DNA of 24,000 nucleotides from Cyanobacteria bacterium UBA999 (GCA_002291895.1 DBAX01000009.1:3854-27853), one strand, 5' to 3'. Positions 11,583 to 18,521 are shown, counted from the stretch's first letter. Notes: generated from the sequence alone by a model not told the origin. Made by a program: numbers and translations.

Positions 11583-12131
11583 CTATTGCCCTACAACTTG
11601 TGACGAAATCCGCTGCTGCACGCTGAAGCCAAATCGCCCCTGGCTGTGCTTTACCCAAAGGCCATCCATTTGCTGGAGAATGGCGCAGGGTAGCTGCTCA
11701 AGGTCGGCGGCGGTGATGGCAGAATCCTTGGGCTTTTGCAGTGCTTGGCAGAGCAACCGCCACGTTTCGATGTTGGCTTCCCGCCACCGGCTGGCCCGCA
11801 GTAGGGCTTCGAGATTGGCAAAGGAAAGGCTCGGCAGCACGGCTGCTACTGGAGCAAAGCCCTCGGCCCGCCGCCGGAAGTGGAGGGTCATGGTCATTCC
11901 CCCGGTGGGAGCCTGATGCCCCACAAGCACCACTTCCCCAGACTCCGTAATCCGAACTGGCATAGAGATTTCCTCAAGGGCAAGTCCGGTACCGCCGTCG
12001 GGAATAATTTGGCTTACAAAGTGGGAGAGCCTCTGCAAGCTTAGCTTGACGGCTTGGGCGTCGATGACACGGGTATCAGTGCGGGTGCCATCGGCTGTCG
12101 TAACCTCAATTAAGATCTCTTCCTTGCTCAT
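11583..12131 (-). CDS. Two-domain ORF: Trypco2/CU044_2847-like N-terminal domain plus a truncated (N-terminal half) GUN4-like domain
   Basis: From ATG 12131 the protein reads MSKEEILIEVTTADG...LALEEISMPVRITESGEVVLVGHQAPTGGMTMTLHFRR. That beta-rich pattern recalls trypsin-co-occurring domain 2 (tentative). Then comes FANLEALLRASRWREANIETWRLL...LEQLPCAILQQMDGLWVKHSQGRFGFSVQQRI (GUN4 first half), followed by 7 aa and TAG. The start overlaps the upstream ClC gene by 26 nt. Confidence 0.65.
   Translation of the reverse strand: MSKEEILIEVTTADGTRTDTRVIDAQAVKLSLQRLSHFVSQIIPDGGTGLALEEISMPVRITESGEVVLVGHQAPTGGMTMTLHFRRRAEGFAPVAAVLPSLSFANLEALLRASRWREANIETWRLLCQALQKPKDSAITAADLEQLPCAILQQMDGLWVKHSQGRFGFSVQQRISSQVVGQ
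11607..11828 (-). other. GUN4-like domain, N-terminal half
   Basis: The W-x-EA(D/N)-x-ET ... PC-x2-L-x2-(I/M)D-x-LW-x3-S-x-GRFGFSVQ pattern is present. Confidence 0.7.
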
Positions 12132-13986
12132 GGGGCTTTTGCAGGTAGCGGTGGACGGGGACGGCGGGCGGTTCTGGCGGAATGTTGGCACTGATTGTAT
12201 CAGCAGTGGGTCTTTCTGGCTCTATGCTATCCAATTTCTGGTGGGCGGAGATTTTTTCGGCGATCGCCCTTTTGGTGAGGGCCGTAGCATGGGCCGTGGC
12301 GATCGCCTGACGCTCTACAACGCCAATTACCCGCTTGGTCTGGTGCCGATCTACTACGGGCAGTTGGCGCAAATCCCGGGCAGCCATGCGTTTCAGGGCG
12401 GCGGCTAGGGTTTCGTCGGCATAGGTAAACAGCACTTCGGGGGTGTAGGCATCGGCAACGATCAGGCTCTCGGGCGATCGCTGGGGAAAGGCAGATAGGG
12501 CACGCTTAATGTCTTGGGTGGTCAGGATTCCCGACAAATGATTGTTTTCGTCTAGGACGAGCACGCTGTGGTAGTAGCCACTGGTAACAAACTGCGCCGC
12601 CTGGAGCAGGGGCATCTGACTTTTGAGGCATAGCGGATTGAGGGTCATCACCTCGGCGATTTTGATATTGGAAAGCACATCAAGGTCGATCGCCGATTCC
12701 TGGGCAGCCACAGCCACGGCGGGAGCCTCCGGTACCGCAGGATAGACCTGTTCTACCAACCAAGAGCAAAAACCCACGCTGGCCATAAGGGGGAGCACAA
12801 TGCGATAGTCGCGGGTGAGTTCAAAGAGCAGGAGCACCGATGTCAGAGGAGCCCGCACCGTGCCCGCCAAGAGCGCTGCCATTCCCATCAGGGCATAGGC
12901 GGGTGGGGCGGAAATGACCACGGAGTCCGGTAAGACCAGGGGGAGCACTGTGGCGTAGAGGGCCCCGAGCACCGCTCCCAGGAAAATTGCGGGCGCGAAA
13001 ATTCCTCCCACAAAGCCCGATCCCAGGCACAGGGCAGTGAGCAGCACCTTACCGACCAGCAGTTGGGACAGCAGGGCGGGGGAGAAGGGAGCCCCCTGGA
13101 GAATGCCCTCCACAGTTTCGTAGCCTACGCCCAAAATTTCGGGCACCACGAGGGCCACCATCCCGGTAATCCACCCTCCTAGAAGCAGTTTCAGCACGGG
13201 AGGCACCGTACCGGTCAGGGCAGCTTTCATCCAAGTTAGGCAGCGGTTGAAGGCGATCGCCACGCCACTGCAGAGCACGCCCAAACCCACATAGAAAATG
13301 TACTCCCCGTAGCTACGGAGTTCGTACACTGGCAGGTGAAAGGCGGCTTCGGGCCCAAGCCCCACCTGGGCAATAATTGCAGACAGCACTGCCGCCAAAA
13401 CCACGGCACTGATATCGGTGTTGGTCTGCCCACCTCCGGTGCCGTAGACGCTGCGCAGGGAAACTTCAAGGGCAAAGAAAACCCCGGCAATTGGGGCATT
13501 GAAGCCGGCTGCCAGACCGCCTGCGGCGCCCGCGGCCATGAGCAGTCGGGTGCGCTCCGTCGAGAATTGCAACTGTTGCCCTAACCAGCGGGCCAGCTGA
13601 CTACCTAGTTCCACGCTGGGCCCTTCAGGCCCCAGGGAAGCCCCTGCCCCCAGGGAGACTACGGCCATCAGAGCCCGCAGCAGGGTCTGCCCCAGGTTGG
13701 TTTGCTCGGCGTTGGTCTGGGTCAGGCGATCACCCCACCCCCGCAGGAGGGCAACCAAGAGGGCCCCCAGCACCGGGATGACAGCGACAGAAATGGCCGC
13801 CACGGGCATCAGCCAGTGGAGCAGTTGCTCCCAGTAAAAACCCTCAGCCCAGGCAATACTTTTGCGAAACAGCGTCACGGCCGAGCCAGCCACCACACCT
13901 ACGGCGATCGCCGAGCCCAGCACCACCGTTGCCGCTGAGGGTTGGAAGCGGTTGAGTATGGCAACCAACAGACGGGAGGTGGTCAT
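12106..13986 (-). CDS. ClC-family chloride channel/antiporter with C-terminal CBS pair
   Basis: 626 aa. ClC motifs are GPEGP (13618-13632), GFNAPIAGVFFALEVS, GGIFAP and RAPLTSVLLLFELTRDY. The CBS pair is IAEVMTLNPLCL...LSGILTTQDI and ...LRQLPVVDRHQTKRVIGVVERQAI. ATG 13986 lies 20 nt after the upstream gene's stop. Confidence 0.9.
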   Translation of the reverse strand: MTTSRLLVAILNRFQPSAATVVLGSAIAVGVVAGSAVTLFRKSIAWAEGFYWEQLLHWLMPVAAISVAVIPVLGALLVALLRGWGDRLTQTNAEQTNLGQTLLRALMAVVSLGAGASLGPEGPSVELGSQLARWLGQQLQFSTERTRLLMAAGAAGGLAAGFNAPIAGVFFALEVSLRSVYGTGGGQTNTDISAVVLAAVLSAIIAQVGLGPEAAFHLPVYELRSYGEYIFYVGLGVLCSGVAIAFNRCLTWMKAALTGTVPPVLKLLLGGWITGMVALVVPEILGVGYETVEGILQGAPFSPALLSQLLVGKVLLTALCLGSGFVGGIFAPAIFLGAVLGALYATVLPLVLPDSVVISAPPAYALMGMAALLAGTVRAPLTSVLLLFELTRDYRIVLPLMASVGFCSWLVEQVYPAVPEAPAVAVAAQESAIDLDVLSNIKIAEVMTLNPLCLKSQMPLLQAAQFVTSGYYHSVLVLDENNHLSGILTTQDIKRALSAFPQRSPESLIVADAYTPEVLFTYADETLAAALKRMAARDLRQLPVVDRHQTKRVIGVVERQAIATAHATALTKRAIAEKISAHQKLDSIEPERPTADTISANIPPEPPAVPVHRYLQKPHEQGRDLN

Positions 13987-14006
13987 AACCCCAAGCCATC
14001 TCCTCG

Positions 14007-16367
14007 CTAAGGGGCTTCAGTGTCGTAGGCGTCATCATCCCCCCCGTAGGATCCATCGGCGATGGCACTCCTGGGGTCGGCATCCATAGAATCCCTTTGA
14101 TCGTTTTGATCGTTAGGTGGTTCGTTGGAATCGATGGACACTGCGTCAACCTCCTCCCCTTCGGCAGTAGGCACGGCCACGACGGCTTCCAGATCCACCT
14201 GCTGGCGGTAGTAGTCCACTCCACGCACCTGCACCTCGACGCGATCGCCCAAGCGAAACTGCCGCCCACTGCGACGACCCACCAGAGCCGAAGCCTGCCG
14301 CCCCTTGCCCCGTCCCCCGGTTTGGGGAAATTCGTACCAGTCATCCTTTAACGAGCTGACGTGCACCAGTCCCTCTACTAGCAGTTCTTCTAATTCCACA
14401 AAAAATCCGTAGGTCTGCACCGAGGTGATCATGCCGAAGAAGTGTTCCCCAGTGCGCGATCGCATGATTTCGGTTTTGCGCAACCCCTCCAAGTCTGCCA
14501 TGGCCCGAAAGTAGAGCGCCTCCTGCTGGGTGAGCCGGGGCAGCACTTCCGCTAGATCCTCCTGCAGTTGCTTTTCCCGCTCCGGTGGCAACACCCCCCA
14601 ACTGATCTGGCCGTGGCATTCCGAGCTACGCAGATTCACCGAGGCTTTGCTCCGCTGCGTTTTGCGATCGCGCCCCTCAGCGAACACCCAATGCCAAACC
14701 CGCTGCATCAACAGATCGCCGTAGCGATGCTGGGGCAAAATGCCATGGGTATAGGGCATCAAACCCAGACCGAAATGGGGCTCCGCTGTGCTGCGATACT
14801 CGCAGGATTTGAGCATCGCCATCAGCAGGTAGCGCAAAATATCCCGTCCCGCAGCCGACTCAAGCTGCTGCACCTGCCCCAGGAGTTTCTGCCAATGGTG
14901 GGGTTGGCAGGAGTCATCATCGCCCAGCTCTAGGGGCATGCCTAAACTTTCTAGCAGCCGGAGCCAGTCCTCCTGCTTGCCCGACTCGGGAGGAGCCTGG
15001 GAAACAAAGAGCCCCGGCAGACCCAATTGCTGCCAGTGCTGGGCGATCGCCCAATTGGCCAAGATCATGACATCCGCCACCGCACCGCAGATGGGCATGG
15101 ATGTTCCCGACACGGCCATCCCCCACACCCCCTCATCCCCCTCAAAGGGCAACGGCAAAGATAGATCGATGCTCGGCATCGGCCGTTGCTGCCGCAGGAG
15201 CATCCCAACTTCATGGAGGCGATGCAAAAAGTGCTGCACCTCATCCCGCTCGGTAGCCGCCAAGGACTCGGCAAAAATCTCCTGGGCCCGCCGTGGTTCC
15301 AAGTGCGATCGCAGCTGAATCACCGACGGCTGGAGTTCGTAGCTCAGCAGTTTTCCCGTCCCATCCAACTGCATCAGCACCGAGACCGTAAGAAACTCCG
15401 GCTGGTTAAACCCATTGAGTTCCGGCAGCATCGACAGCACCGTATCGCCCAGGAAAAACGACCGCAAGCGCCGTCGCGCCTCTCCATCGAGGGGAGCGTC
15501 GGGCACGACGTAGGTCGCCACATCGGGAATGTGCACTCCCAGATTCCAACCCAGCTCCGTCGGCTCTAGGGACATTGCCGCCCCCTGACCAATCCGCACC
15601 GTGCATTCCTTTTTGAGATCCAACCGGCTCTTGAGATCCGCCTTCCGCACCTTCGTGGGCAAACTGGCCGCCGCCGCCAACTCCTTAGCCCCAAATTGGC
15701 GGGGCAAATTGTACTTGCAGCACACCAAATCCAAGTCGTTGGTAGTTTCGGGACTGTCCCCCAAAACCTGCAAGATCTCAGCCATCGGTAAAGCACTTCC
15801 CAGGGGGTACCGGCTCACCCGCAGGTGTACCAACTTACCTGCCGCCACCGCCAGATCGGGCACGATGTCGTTAGGAACCAACTCCAGCTCAAACAGCAGA
15901 CGATCATCCAATGGGATCGCCCGGTAGCCCTCCTCCCGCGCCTCAACGCGAGACAGCAGCGTCGTGTTTGTGCGCTCCAAAATCAGCCGCACCTCCCCCT
16001 CGGGCGATCGCCGCCGGCCGCCATCCTTGAGCACCTTAACCAGCACCAAATCCCCATTCCAGGCCGTACTCAGACGACTGCTGGGAACGTAGACATCTTC
16101 CACCCCTTCCCCTTCCTGAATGGCAAAGCAAAAACCCTTACTGGAACAGCGTAGCCGCCCCTCAACCACGCCTTCTTCTGCGATCCGGCGATAGCGCCCC
16201 AAATCCTTGGTTAAAATTCCCAGCCGCTCCAGGGCATCCAGCGCCACCTGCATCCGGCGCACCTCCGCCGGCCGGTCTGAAATCCCCAAACGCTTTTCGA
16301 TCACCTTTGGGGCTACCAGCTTGTCGTCGCTAAAGCTATCCAAAAGTTGTGTGATCGAAAATTCCAT
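14007..16367 (-). CDS. RNase II/R-family (RNB + C-terminal S1 domain) protein with degenerate catalytic motifs
   Basis: The overall VacB/RNase R architecture is present. RNB-region landmarks are WNLGVHIPDVATYV, LSMLPE, DVMILANWAIA and HFGLGLMPYTH. The S1 domain is GEHFFGMITSVQTYGFFVELEELLVEGLVHVSSL. ATG 16367 (MEFSITQLL...) is preferred over the TTG at 16394. Confidence 0.85.
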   Translation of the reverse strand: MEFSITQLLDSFSDDKLVAPKVIEKRLGISDRPAEVRRMQVALDALERLGILTKDLGRYRRIAEEGVVEGRLRCSSKGFCFAIQEGEGVEDVYVPSSRLSTAWNGDLVLVKVLKDGGRRRSPEGEVRLILERTNTTLLSRVEAREEGYRAIPLDDRLLFELELVPNDIVPDLAVAAGKLVHLRVSRYPLGSALPMAEILQVLGDSPETTNDLDLVCCKYNLPRQFGAKELAAAASLPTKVRKADLKSRLDLKKECTVRIGQGAAMSLEPTELGWNLGVHIPDVATYVVPDAPLDGEARRRLRSFFLGDTVLSMLPELNGFNQPEFLTVSVLMQLDGTGKLLSYELQPSVIQLRSHLEPRRAQEIFAESLAATERDEVQHFLHRLHEVGMLLRQQRPMPSIDLSLPLPFEGDEGVWGMAVSGTSMPICGAVADVMILANWAIAQHWQQLGLPGLFVSQAPPESGKQEDWLRLLESLGMPLELGDDDSCQPHHWQKLLGQVQQLESAAGRDILRYLLMAMLKSCEYRSTAEPHFGLGLMPYTHGILPQHRYGDLLMQRVWHWVFAEGRDRKTQRSKASVNLRSSECHGQISWGVLPPEREKQLQEDLAEVLPRLTQQEALYFRAMADLEGLRKTEIMRSRTGEHFFGMITSVQTYGFFVELEELLVEGLVHVSSLKDDWYEFPQTGGRGKGRQASALVGRRSGRQFRLGDRVEVQVRGVDYYRQQVDLEAVVAVPTAEGEEVDAVSIDSNEPPNDQNDQRDSMDADPRSAIADGSYGGDDDAYDTEAP

Positions 16368-16868
16368 AACATTTAGTTCCCTGTAGTCATTCAATCTTAC
16401 CGCAAGCAGGAATCATTCAGCCCCTTGGCAGATGCGACACGGACAGGAAGCATCATCCGCACTGCAACCACAAAGCCGCTTGTATTGACCGATACATCAC
16501 CCCGCCCCGATTTCCCTCAGAAATTGCCATTAGCAGCAAAGTGTAGTACATATCTTTATAGTTTTCTTTTTGCCCCTGTCGCCATTGCTCCAGATTTCGC
16601 TCTTCTTGGTCACCTTCCCCGGCTGAATTGCATGGTGCTGTTTACGGTCCTCAATTAGCCTACTGGTGTGACGCAGCTAAGAAGCAGTTGAGAGAGGAGC
16701 CGTTCCTGAGGTGGCATGTTCCAGTGCGTCTCCATCAAATGTGGAGGTTTCTGGACATTCTTAGCGAAATTGCTAAGATAGTTCGGGGATTCGTGGGCAT
16801 CCTGAGCCAAAATGCAGGAGAGCAAGTACGAATTTTTGACGAATTGTTGTCAGTGTGAGGACTATTTC
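16368..16868. promoter_or_regulatory. Divergent intergenic/promoter region between the RNase II-like operon and the porin gene
   Basis: A 501-nt non-coding gap that is more AT-rich than its flanks and has no HIP1. Candidate plus-strand elements are TTGCCA (16524-16529), a 17-nt spacer, then TACATA (16547-16552), and also TTGACG (16836-16841). None is decisive. Confidence 0.4.
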
Positions 16869-18521
16869 ATGACTACGCCAATGTTCCGCTCCATCTATCG
16901 CGCAGGCTGCATGTCTGCACTGCTGTCGACCAGCTTGTTGGTTTCCACCTCTGCCAAAGCAGAAACCGAATCCAGCGTCATTCGCACCATGAGCGTTGAC
17001 CCCATTGCTCGCCCCATCACCACTGCCCAAAACAATGTCACTTCCGTCTCTCAGTTGAGTGATGTTCGCCCCACCGATTGGGCTTTCACCGCATTGCAAT
17101 CCTTGGTTGAGCGCTACGGTTGTATCGCTGGTTACCCTGACCGCACCTACCGCGGTCAACGGGCTATGACCCGCTTTGAGTTTGCCGCTGGTTTGAATGC
17201 TTGCTTAGACAAGATCAACGAAATCATCTCCGCTGGCTTGGCTGACAAGGTGAGCACTGAAGATTTGGCTGCTCTGCAACGCTTGCAAGAGGAATTCGCT
17301 GCTGAACTTGCTACCCTCCGTGGTCGCGTTGATGCCCTCGAAGCCCGCACCACCCGCCTGGAAGCCCAGCAATTCTCCACCACCACCAAGCTGAACGCTT
17401 CGGTGATTTTCGCGGTGTCTGGCGCTTCTGATGATCGCACCAGCTTCACTCCCAACGCCACGAACAATGGTGTTACTGCCAACACCACTGGCGATCGCAC
17501 CAACATTACTTTTTCTAACCGTACCCGCTTGAACTTTGACACCAGCTTTACCGGTCGTGATCGCTTGCGCACGCGGTTGGAAGCTGGCAATATTCCTAAC
17601 AATACCGCTGCCCTTGGCACTGGCAACTCTGGACGTTTGGGCTTTGAAGCAGATACGGGCAACAACTTTACCTTGGGTCGCTTGTTCTATCAGTTCCCTG
17701 TGGGCAATGCCGTGACCGTTTACATTGCTCCCCTCGGCAACACTGATGATGTGCTGTCCCGGATCAACGCTGTGGAAAGCGAAGAGCAAGCCACGGTTTC
17801 CCGCTTCGCCCGTTACAACCCCATCTTGCGTTTGTCCCAAGTTCAGCCCTTCGCTGTATTCGGTGCTCGGATTCAGCTTAGCCCCCAAGGTCGCTTGGAG
17901 TTGGCCTACGGCTCCGGTGATGCTGCTCAGCCCGGTGTAGATTCCCCTACTGGTGGTGGTTTGTTCGGTGACTCCCATGTGCTGGCTGCCCAGTTGGTGT
18001 GGGAACCCTCCCGTAATTTCACCCTTGGCATTAGCTACGCCAATGCTTACAACCCCCGCAACAGCCTGGCAACTGGCTTTGCTCAGGAAAACATTCGTAC
18101 CAGCAATGGTGTTGCTGTGGCTGATGTTCGTTCCAATACGGTTGCTGGCAACTTGGTTTGGGGTATTACTCCCAACATTGACTTGAGCGTGTGGGGTGCC
18201 TTTATCTTCGCTGAAGCTGGTAACCTGAATGCTTCTACCACGTTCACTTCTTGGATGGCAGCCCTTTCCTTTAAGGATCTGTTCTCCCGCAGCGACCTGG
18301 CTGGCATCATCTTTGGTCAGCCCCTCTTCCGTAGCTCCGTGAGTGGCAACGCCACCAACGCGGGTGAATCGACTCCTTACCACTTGGAGTTCTTCTACAA
18401 CTACCGCATTTCCCGGAACATCTCGATCACCCCGGCGGTGTTCTTTGTATTCAACCCCAATAGCTTGTCGGTTAACGGCACCACCACCGTCGGTGTGCTG
18501 CGTACCACTTTTACGTTCTAA
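16869..18521 (+). CDS. Outer-membrane porin, SLH domain + OprB-type beta-barrel (cyanobacterial Slr1841-like)
   Basis: It has a signal-peptide-like N-terminus ...CMSALLSTSLLVSTSAKAE. The SLH motif is SQLSDVRPTDWAFTALQSLVERYGCIAGYPDRTYRGQRAMTRFEFA. A coiled-coil linker follows, then alternating beta-strand sequence ending in the aromatic terminus TTFTF. An alternative start is ATG 16881. Confidence 0.85.
   Translation: MTTPMFRSIYRAGCMSALLSTSLLVSTSAKAETESSVIRTMSVDPIARPITTAQNNVTSVSQLSDVRPTDWAFTALQSLVERYGCIAGYPDRTYRGQRAMTRFEFAAGLNACLDKINEIISAGLADKVSTEDLAALQRLQEEFAAELATLRGRVDALEARTTRLEAQQFSTTTKLNASVIFAVSGASDDRTSFTPNATNNGVTANTTGDRTNITFSNRTRLNFDTSFTGRDRLRTRLEAGNIPNNTAALGTGNSGRLGFEADTGNNFTLGRLFYQFPVGNAVTVYIAPLGNTDDVLSRINAVESEEQATVSRFARYNPILRLSQVQPFAVFGARIQLSPQGRLELAYGSGDAAQPGVDSPTGGGLFGDSHVLAAQLVWEPSRNFTLGISYANAYNPRNSLATGFAQENIRTSNGVAVADVRSNTVAGNLVWGITPNIDLSVWGAFIFAEAGNLNASTTFTSWMAALSFKDLFSRSDLAGIIFGQPLFRSSVSGNATNAGESTPYHLEFFYNYRISRNISITPAVFFVFNPNSLSVNGTTTVGVLRTTFTF

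Follow-up and report, generated by a model that had tools for sequence, protein, structure and literature searches.

A Zam-lineage RNase R homolog with a degenerate catalytic site in a Pseudanabaenales-like cyanobacterium

The window analyzed here, a stretch of 24,000 nucleotides from Cyanobacteria bacterium UBA999 (GCA_002291895.1 DBAX01000009.1:3854-27853), contains on its minus strand a gene for an RNase II/R-family protein with the domain layout CSD1-CSD2-RNB-S1 (Table 1). The Pfam families OB_RNB, CSD2, RNB, and S1 were all detected above their cut-offs, which bears out the description, in a first-pass annotation of this DNA, of a full-length ORF whose scaffold and S1 domain are otherwise intact. 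The frame extends from 14007 to 16394 when counted from a TTG codon at 16392-16394, nine codons beyond the ATG. This TTG was considered as a start and rejected; since residue 10 of the query is where homolog matches start, opposite residue 1 of the homologs, the ATG at 16367 is taken to be the real start.

Table 1. Features of the zam locus, in window coordinates.
Feature	Coordinates	Strand	Remarks
zam orthologue	14007..16367	-	786 aa; ATG 16365-16367, TAG stop 14007-14009 (ORF list)
CSD1 (Pfam OB_RNB)	15987..16160	-	64.6 bits; L12 loop with Zam Cys pair
Cys74 codon	16146..16148	-	counterpart of redox-active C73 of PCC 7002 and PCC 6803 Zam (PMC9145284)
Cys80 codon	16128..16130	-	counterpart of C79
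CSD2 cold-shock domain	15693..15848	-	Pfam CSD2, 46.7 bits
RNB domain	14691..15578	-	Pfam RNB, 156.9 bits, model positions 23-321 only
Motif I remnant, then GVHIPDV block	15507..15602	-	32 residues; Mg-ligand loop deleted
Altered motif IV	14691..14777	-	R500 counterpart = His547 (codon 14727-14729)
S1 domain	14187..14453	-	Pfam S1, 39.9 bits
Acidic disordered C-terminal tail	14010..14189	-	60 aa, net charge -16; pLDDT <50 from residue 740

Compared with the RNase R proteins of Bacillus subtilis and Escherichia coli, the S1 domain has eight extra residues, basic and rich in Gly and Arg, at about residues 680-690; this insert is the sole low-confidence stretch within the folded part of the structural model described below (block pLDDT 62, with the dip at 681-690). 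The tail that follows it conserves composition rather than sequence, its approximate dN/dS being 0.46. Of 69 nonredundant Zam sequences, 68 have a C-terminal tail with a net negative charge, and the median charge is -10; the tails of canonical RNase R representatives are mostly basic, E. coli RNase R reaching +25 over its last 90 residues.

In the window (12106-18521), a divergent SLH-OprB porin gene, zam, and a ClC-CBS channel gene lie in that order, which is kept in 12 of 12 Pseudanabaenales loci with sufficient flanking sequence, plus L085, the locus of the closest orthologue (comparison loci L005-L017, L041, and L085). A ClC gene lies downstream of zam in 13 of 13 loci and a porin upstream in 10 of 12, L018, and L085. 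Neither a porin nor a ClC-CBS gene was seen adjoining zam in loci from other cyanobacterial orders. In L085, GUN4 and Hpt-GUN4 genes come next, as in the window.

Thomas et al. (2022; PMC9145284) described the Zam proteins as an RNB-family clade that is found across the cyanobacteria and lies closest to RNase R. Their active site is highly degenerate, conservation being concentrated in the OB folds, and CSD1 contains two invariant redox-active cysteines, C73 and C79, that are needed in vivo (PMC9145284). Deletion of zam is viable, whereas rnb and pnp are essential, and the published phenotypes of the deletion include acetazolamide tolerance and lower phycocyanin (PMC9145284). Whether the window gene belongs to this lineage, a question left open by the first-pass annotation, is answered in the affirmative by the cysteine pair, by its placement within the clade, by reciprocal best hits, and by a canonical Rnb elsewhere in the genome: it is the Zam-lineage orthologue of a Pseudanabaenales-like cyanobacterium. 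C74 and C80 of the window protein have the same C-x5-C spacing as the C73/C79 pair, and the RNA-contacting residues R73, K77, F79, and F81 of the CSD1 L12 loop are retained around them. Among the 342 Zam-like sequences examined, a sample in which relatives of the window protein and of Synechococcus elongatus are overrepresented, the Cys74 and Cys80 columns hold Cys in 338 and 340, respectively. Clustering at 50% gave 129 representatives, 21 of them with a degenerate site; the pair was present in 18 of these 21 and in none of the 108 canonical ones. In a maximum-likelihood tree of 73 proteins, a quick IQ-TREE search in which the RNase II outgroup branches are long, the Zam-like group formed a single clade (100% SH-aLRT, stem length 1.07) that is sister to canonical RNase R, and the window protein was nested within a Pseudanabaenales subclade. 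Two S. elongatus proteins fall within the clade, one from PCC 7942 and one from PCC 6301; the PCC 6301 protein, which its source calls "protein conferring resistance to acetazolamide Zam," is 44% identical to the window protein over the full length. Against the window genome, PCC 7942 Zam scored 593 bits with this gene and 50 bits with the paralog, and the window gene and S. elongatus Zam are reciprocal best hits. The tie to the founding member, Synechocystis sll1910, runs via S. elongatus Zam and Table S1 of PMC9145284.

All 53 genomes sampled from the same class, the window's own included, gave a full-length Zam match. Among 98 genomes sampled from the phylum's other classes, no Zam-like match was obtained; some of these genomes have other RNB genes, while many have none. 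In a 67-genome sample, other RNB genes occur in 16 of 17 genomes of the families coded f24 and f25; the other 50 genomes, which come from the remaining families and many of which are small (~2 Mb), gave no RNB match. Zam appears to be restricted to the class of the window's genome, where it is an RNase R-derived second RNB paralog present in all oxygenic cyanobacteria examined.

The assembly (2.78 Mb, 94% complete) contains exactly two RNB genes. The product of the second, on contig C41, is 702 aa in length, spans Pfam RNB model positions 1-325, has D-E-D-D in the ligand columns and an SPIRRY motif, and groups with E. coli RNase II; this is the canonical RNase II/R gene sought elsewhere in the genome. 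A gene for RNase E is present as well. Its product (656 aa; G000 contig C55, locus L086:685-2655, minus strand) includes a low-complexity stretch rich in Arg, Asp, and Gly, and the C-terminal half that follows its catalytic domain is acidic and rich in Pro and Glu.

The catalytic columns of the window protein were read against E. coli rnb and rnr from NC_000913, aligned with the window protein, its paralog, and three orthologues, residues D201, D207, D209, D210, and R500 of E. coli RNase II being equivalent to D272, D278, D280, D281, and R571 of E. coli RNase R. The first-pass annotation had reported that the segment before the HIPDV block lacks Asp altogether and that the motif IV block is altered; both segments translate exactly as quoted there, with no Asp before HIPDV and His as the counterpart of R500, although a neighboring Arg, at the position of RNase R R572, is retained. 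In the pairwise alignments, the four Mg2+-ligand columns hold G269, S275, E277, and P278, the R500 column H556, and the Y253 column F314 (all numbered from the TTG). When phmmer was used to align the protein with B. subtilis RNase R (8cdu_C), the ligand columns were identical to those of the E. coli comparison, and a family-aware alignment read them as G, gap, gap, and A, again without Asp. The E. coli RNase II, E. coli RNase R, and B. subtilis RNase R alignments agree that none of the four catalytic columns holds Asp. A by-eye register error, a possibility raised in the earlier annotation, was rejected, the ligand columns being devoid of Asp under every alignment method.

The size of the gap had been underestimated. 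Between the Ile that precedes D201 and the HI in the following block, the window protein lacks 7 residues by comparison with the E. coli and B. subtilis enzymes, not about 3, and BLASTP against closer, DD-bearing Zam relatives opens a gap of 9-10 residues that covers the D209-D210 dipeptide and its spacer. In the same comparison, the window Glu (E277, TTG numbering) pairs with a non-ligand Glu five residues past D210, so that, relative to these closer relatives, an acidic residue stands at no ligand position. By alignment, then, a 9-10-residue deletion has taken out the Mg-binding loop of the window protein. Scoring against the Pfam RNB model, a check proposed in the first-pass annotation, led to the same place: the match starts at model position 23, and motif I is therefore unmatched. 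The 108 canonical RNase R representatives recovered by an exhaustive search serve as a control: every one of them shows D-D-D-D and R at these columns, which argues that the ligand loss in the window protein is not a matter of chance. The protein falls below the NCBIfam RNase R equivalog TIGR02063 (319.9 bits against a cut-off of 597.85), its catalytic columns being lost, and far below the RNase II models TIGR02062 and PRK05054 (25-47 bits against cut-offs of 542-642). The RNB domain thus has an intact scaffold with degenerate catalytic motifs. Because the ligands are deleted and R500 is replaced by His, canonical RNB two-metal hydrolysis would be impossible for this protein; the view that it is probably non-catalytic is supported by these columns, and the inferred loss of catalysis agrees with the account of Thomas et al. 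(2022; PMC9145284). A limited literature search found no published D207N/D209N data on RNase II.

The proposal that the gene is nevertheless maintained is upheld by both its substitution pattern and its predicted fold. Compared with the closest orthologue (locus L085, 85% identity), dN/dS is 0.075 overall, 0.007 in CSD1, 0.015 in S1, 0.093 in RNB, and 0.46 in the tail, ratios that are approximate because dS, at about 1.2-1.3, is near saturation; the window zam gene is under purifying selection. Across 81 nonredundant Zam sequences, mean conservation is highest in CSD1 (0.82) and S1 (0.77) and lowest, among domains, in RNB (0.54) and, among blocks, in motif I (0.42), a profile that matches the published pattern (PMC9145284). 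An AlphaFold2 model built with 112 sequences has a mean pLDDT of 91 and a pTM of 0.88, with pLDDT >90 across most of the RNB domain and disorder only in the tail from residue 740. Foldseek ranked bacterial RNase R first (TM 0.72-0.81, target-normalized), with weaker matches to RNase II (TM about 0.65-0.68) and yeast Ssd1 (TM about 0.51), so that the window protein, as modeled, retains a confident RNase R fold. The likeness to Ssd1 suggested in the first-pass annotation stands as an analogy rather than as shared descent. Ssd1 (7AM1) also keeps an RNase II-family scaffold without catalytic residues for a non-nucleolytic RNA-related role, but it lost those residues independently, within the Dis3L2 branch of eukaryotes, and it has no Cys-pair switch.

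The best matches in both sequence and fold are the bacterial RNase R proteins (E. coli 5XGU, B. subtilis 8CDU, and Mycoplasma genitalium 7DCY), with a phmmer E value of 3.5e-68 and an N-terminal helix-turn-helix-like region that is also present in the window protein. RNase R has the four Asp ligands, R571, and a basic C-terminal tail, whereas the window protein has none of the Asp, His in place of R571, and an acidic tail. With the characterized Zam proteins (sll1910, PCC 7002 WP_012307157, and that of S. elongatus) it shares the domain order, the degenerate Mg site, the Cys pair in the CSD1 L12 loop, the position of the clade next to canonical RNase R, and a canonical Rnb alongside it in the genome. 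It differs from them in the additional deletion of the 9-10-residue ligand loop and the change of R500 to His, which place its lineage at the degenerate end of the family, and in the order-specific porin, zam, and ClC-CBS arrangement.

This degenerate end is one extreme of a graded series. In the same biased sample, all four acidic ligands occur together in none of the 342 Zam-like sequences, while the Cys pair is nearly invariant. Among 79 named species loci, D209 and D210 are both retained in 33, 32 of which keep R500 too, and D201 is also present in 15. The near-canonical members, from Leptolyngbyaceae, Oculatellaceae, Nodosilineaceae, and Elainellaceae, retain D201, D209, D210, and an SP.RRY motif with R500, D207 alone being missing (loci L019, L022, L040, L047, and L087-L090 were compared with window 15507-15602). 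The highest RNB model scores among Zam-type genes, about 310-325 bits over model positions 1-324, exceed those of the Rnb paralogs in the same sample, the best of which reaches about 274 bits, and two of these high-scoring Zam-type genes, when aligned, have D201, D209, D210, and R500. Zam proteins of the Nostocales type keep R500 and have Glu at the D209 column; in one Nostocales relative, the D209 column reads E and the D210 column N. All Pseudanabaenaceae loci have the short loop and Asn or His for R500, and in the Pseudanabaenales, including the window gene, as in picocyanobacteria, all catalytic residues are gone. At about 160 bits, the window gene has the lowest RNB score of any full-length Zam-type gene in 34 genomes of the class, its own counted. 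By these residues the window's Pseudanabaenales lineage is among the most degenerate of Zam. On a more novel reading, which we rate as somewhat doubtful, Zam is not uniformly dead: its site decays stepwise while the Cys pair stays constant, and the near-canonical members might still be redox-gated RNase R enzymes.

Published biochemistry on Zam nuclease activity is divided. In the study of Zhou et al. [quoted passage not shown] E. coli BL21(DE3) was the production host, also for the control, an R500A variant of E. coli RNase II, which was inactive (PMC7144899). For PCC 7002 Zam, neither nuclease nor RNA-binding activity was found, but the protein aggregated (PMC9145284). The nuclease status of Zam is still contested between these two studies (PMC7144899; PMC9145284). 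Alr1240 ("AnaRnb" of Anabaena PCC 7120) is of the Zam type according to Thomas et al. (2022), and its proposed RNase E-binding parts, the CSD and S1 regions, correspond to those proposed for the window protein. Compared by its published description, Alr1240 differs in its reported activity in vitro and in keeping R500 (as R558), which is His in the window protein, where the loop is also shorter.

We consider it likely that the window gene encodes a Zam orthologue that is devoid of canonical catalysis and whose maintained scaffold serves as a redox-switched RNA-binding factor acting through RNase E. The loop deletion, together with His at the R500 position, would exclude canonical RNB hydrolysis in this lineage, while purifying selection would keep the RNase R-shaped scaffold, with the conserved OB folds CSD1 and S1 as its putative working parts. 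By analogy with other members of the family, the Cys pair in the RNA-contacting L12 loop may constitute a redox switch (PMC9145284). The protein would then, most likely, dock through CSD and S1 on the catalytic half of RNase E and tune RNA turnover, as extrapolated from Alr1240 (PMC7144899), and genuine 3'-5' exonuclease activity would be supplied by the canonical RNase II paralog and PNPase. A complex prediction with residues 1-420 of the genome's RNase E, its catalytic half, and residues 1-240 of Zam, the CSD region, returned a score of 0.00, a result that, having no controls alongside, is uninformative.

The partner in this scheme could be dispensable. Zam may instead act alone as a sequence- or structure-specific RNA-binding regulator in the manner of Ssd1, and not via RNase E, a possibility we regard as unlikely but deserving of weight. 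The intact RNA-contacting residues of the CSD1 L12 loop and the high conservation of S1 speak for such a regulator, and the complex prediction, itself uninformative, gave docking on RNase E no support. Nevertheless, RNase E is the only biochemical partner reported for any Zam-type protein (PMC7144899), and RNA binding by PCC 7002 Zam was not detected, with the caveats noted for that protein (PMC9145284). The opposite departure, in which the window protein is an active 3'-5' exoribonuclease with noncanonical catalytic residues, along the lines that Zhou et al. suggested for Alr1240, seems improbable. Alr1240 has no D209 and only two acidic residues in its motif I region, yet it degraded single-stranded RNA, and its R558A mutant kept partial activity (PMC7144899); the motif I region of the window protein likewise has two Glu (E268 and E272, ATG numbering), and its RNB domain is under purifying selection. 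However, the window lineage is more degenerate than the Alr1240 type, its ligand loop deleted and its R500 replaced by His, and it lacks the Glu at the D209 column that Nostocales-type Zam proteins retain along with R500. Its RNB score, the lowest of its type, and the position of motif I as the least conserved block across Zam, unexpected for a catalytic site, point the same way.

That the gene is a decaying relic without function we hold to be scarcely credible. The lost catalytic motifs and the low RNase R equivalog score could be read in that way, but the frame is open and full length, CSD1 and S1 are under the strongest constraint, orthologues occur in every sampled genome of the class, the predicted fold is confident, and phenotypes of zam deletion have been published (PMC9145284). 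The dN/dS and conservation data refute a pseudogene or relic.

The window gene is an ordinary orthologue of a known family, for which the catalytic loss has already been described family-wide (Thomas et al., 2022; PMC9145284), and the present analysis makes only small additions, namely the graded decay, the acidic tail, and the order-specific synteny, of which the graded-decay picture may be new. For annotation, the gene is better called Zam (RNB-family pseudo-ribonuclease or regulator) than "ribonuclease R," and the 3'-5' hydrolytic exonuclease capacity of this genome can be credited to its RNase II paralog. Lineage-graded decay, with the loop deletion at one extreme, suggests natural variants to compare on the question of Zam nuclease activity. 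If the stepwise picture is true, the gradient could reconcile the report of activity (Zhou et al., 2020) with that of inactivity (Thomas et al., 2022), and the window gene would provide a natural loop-deleted null for the comparison.
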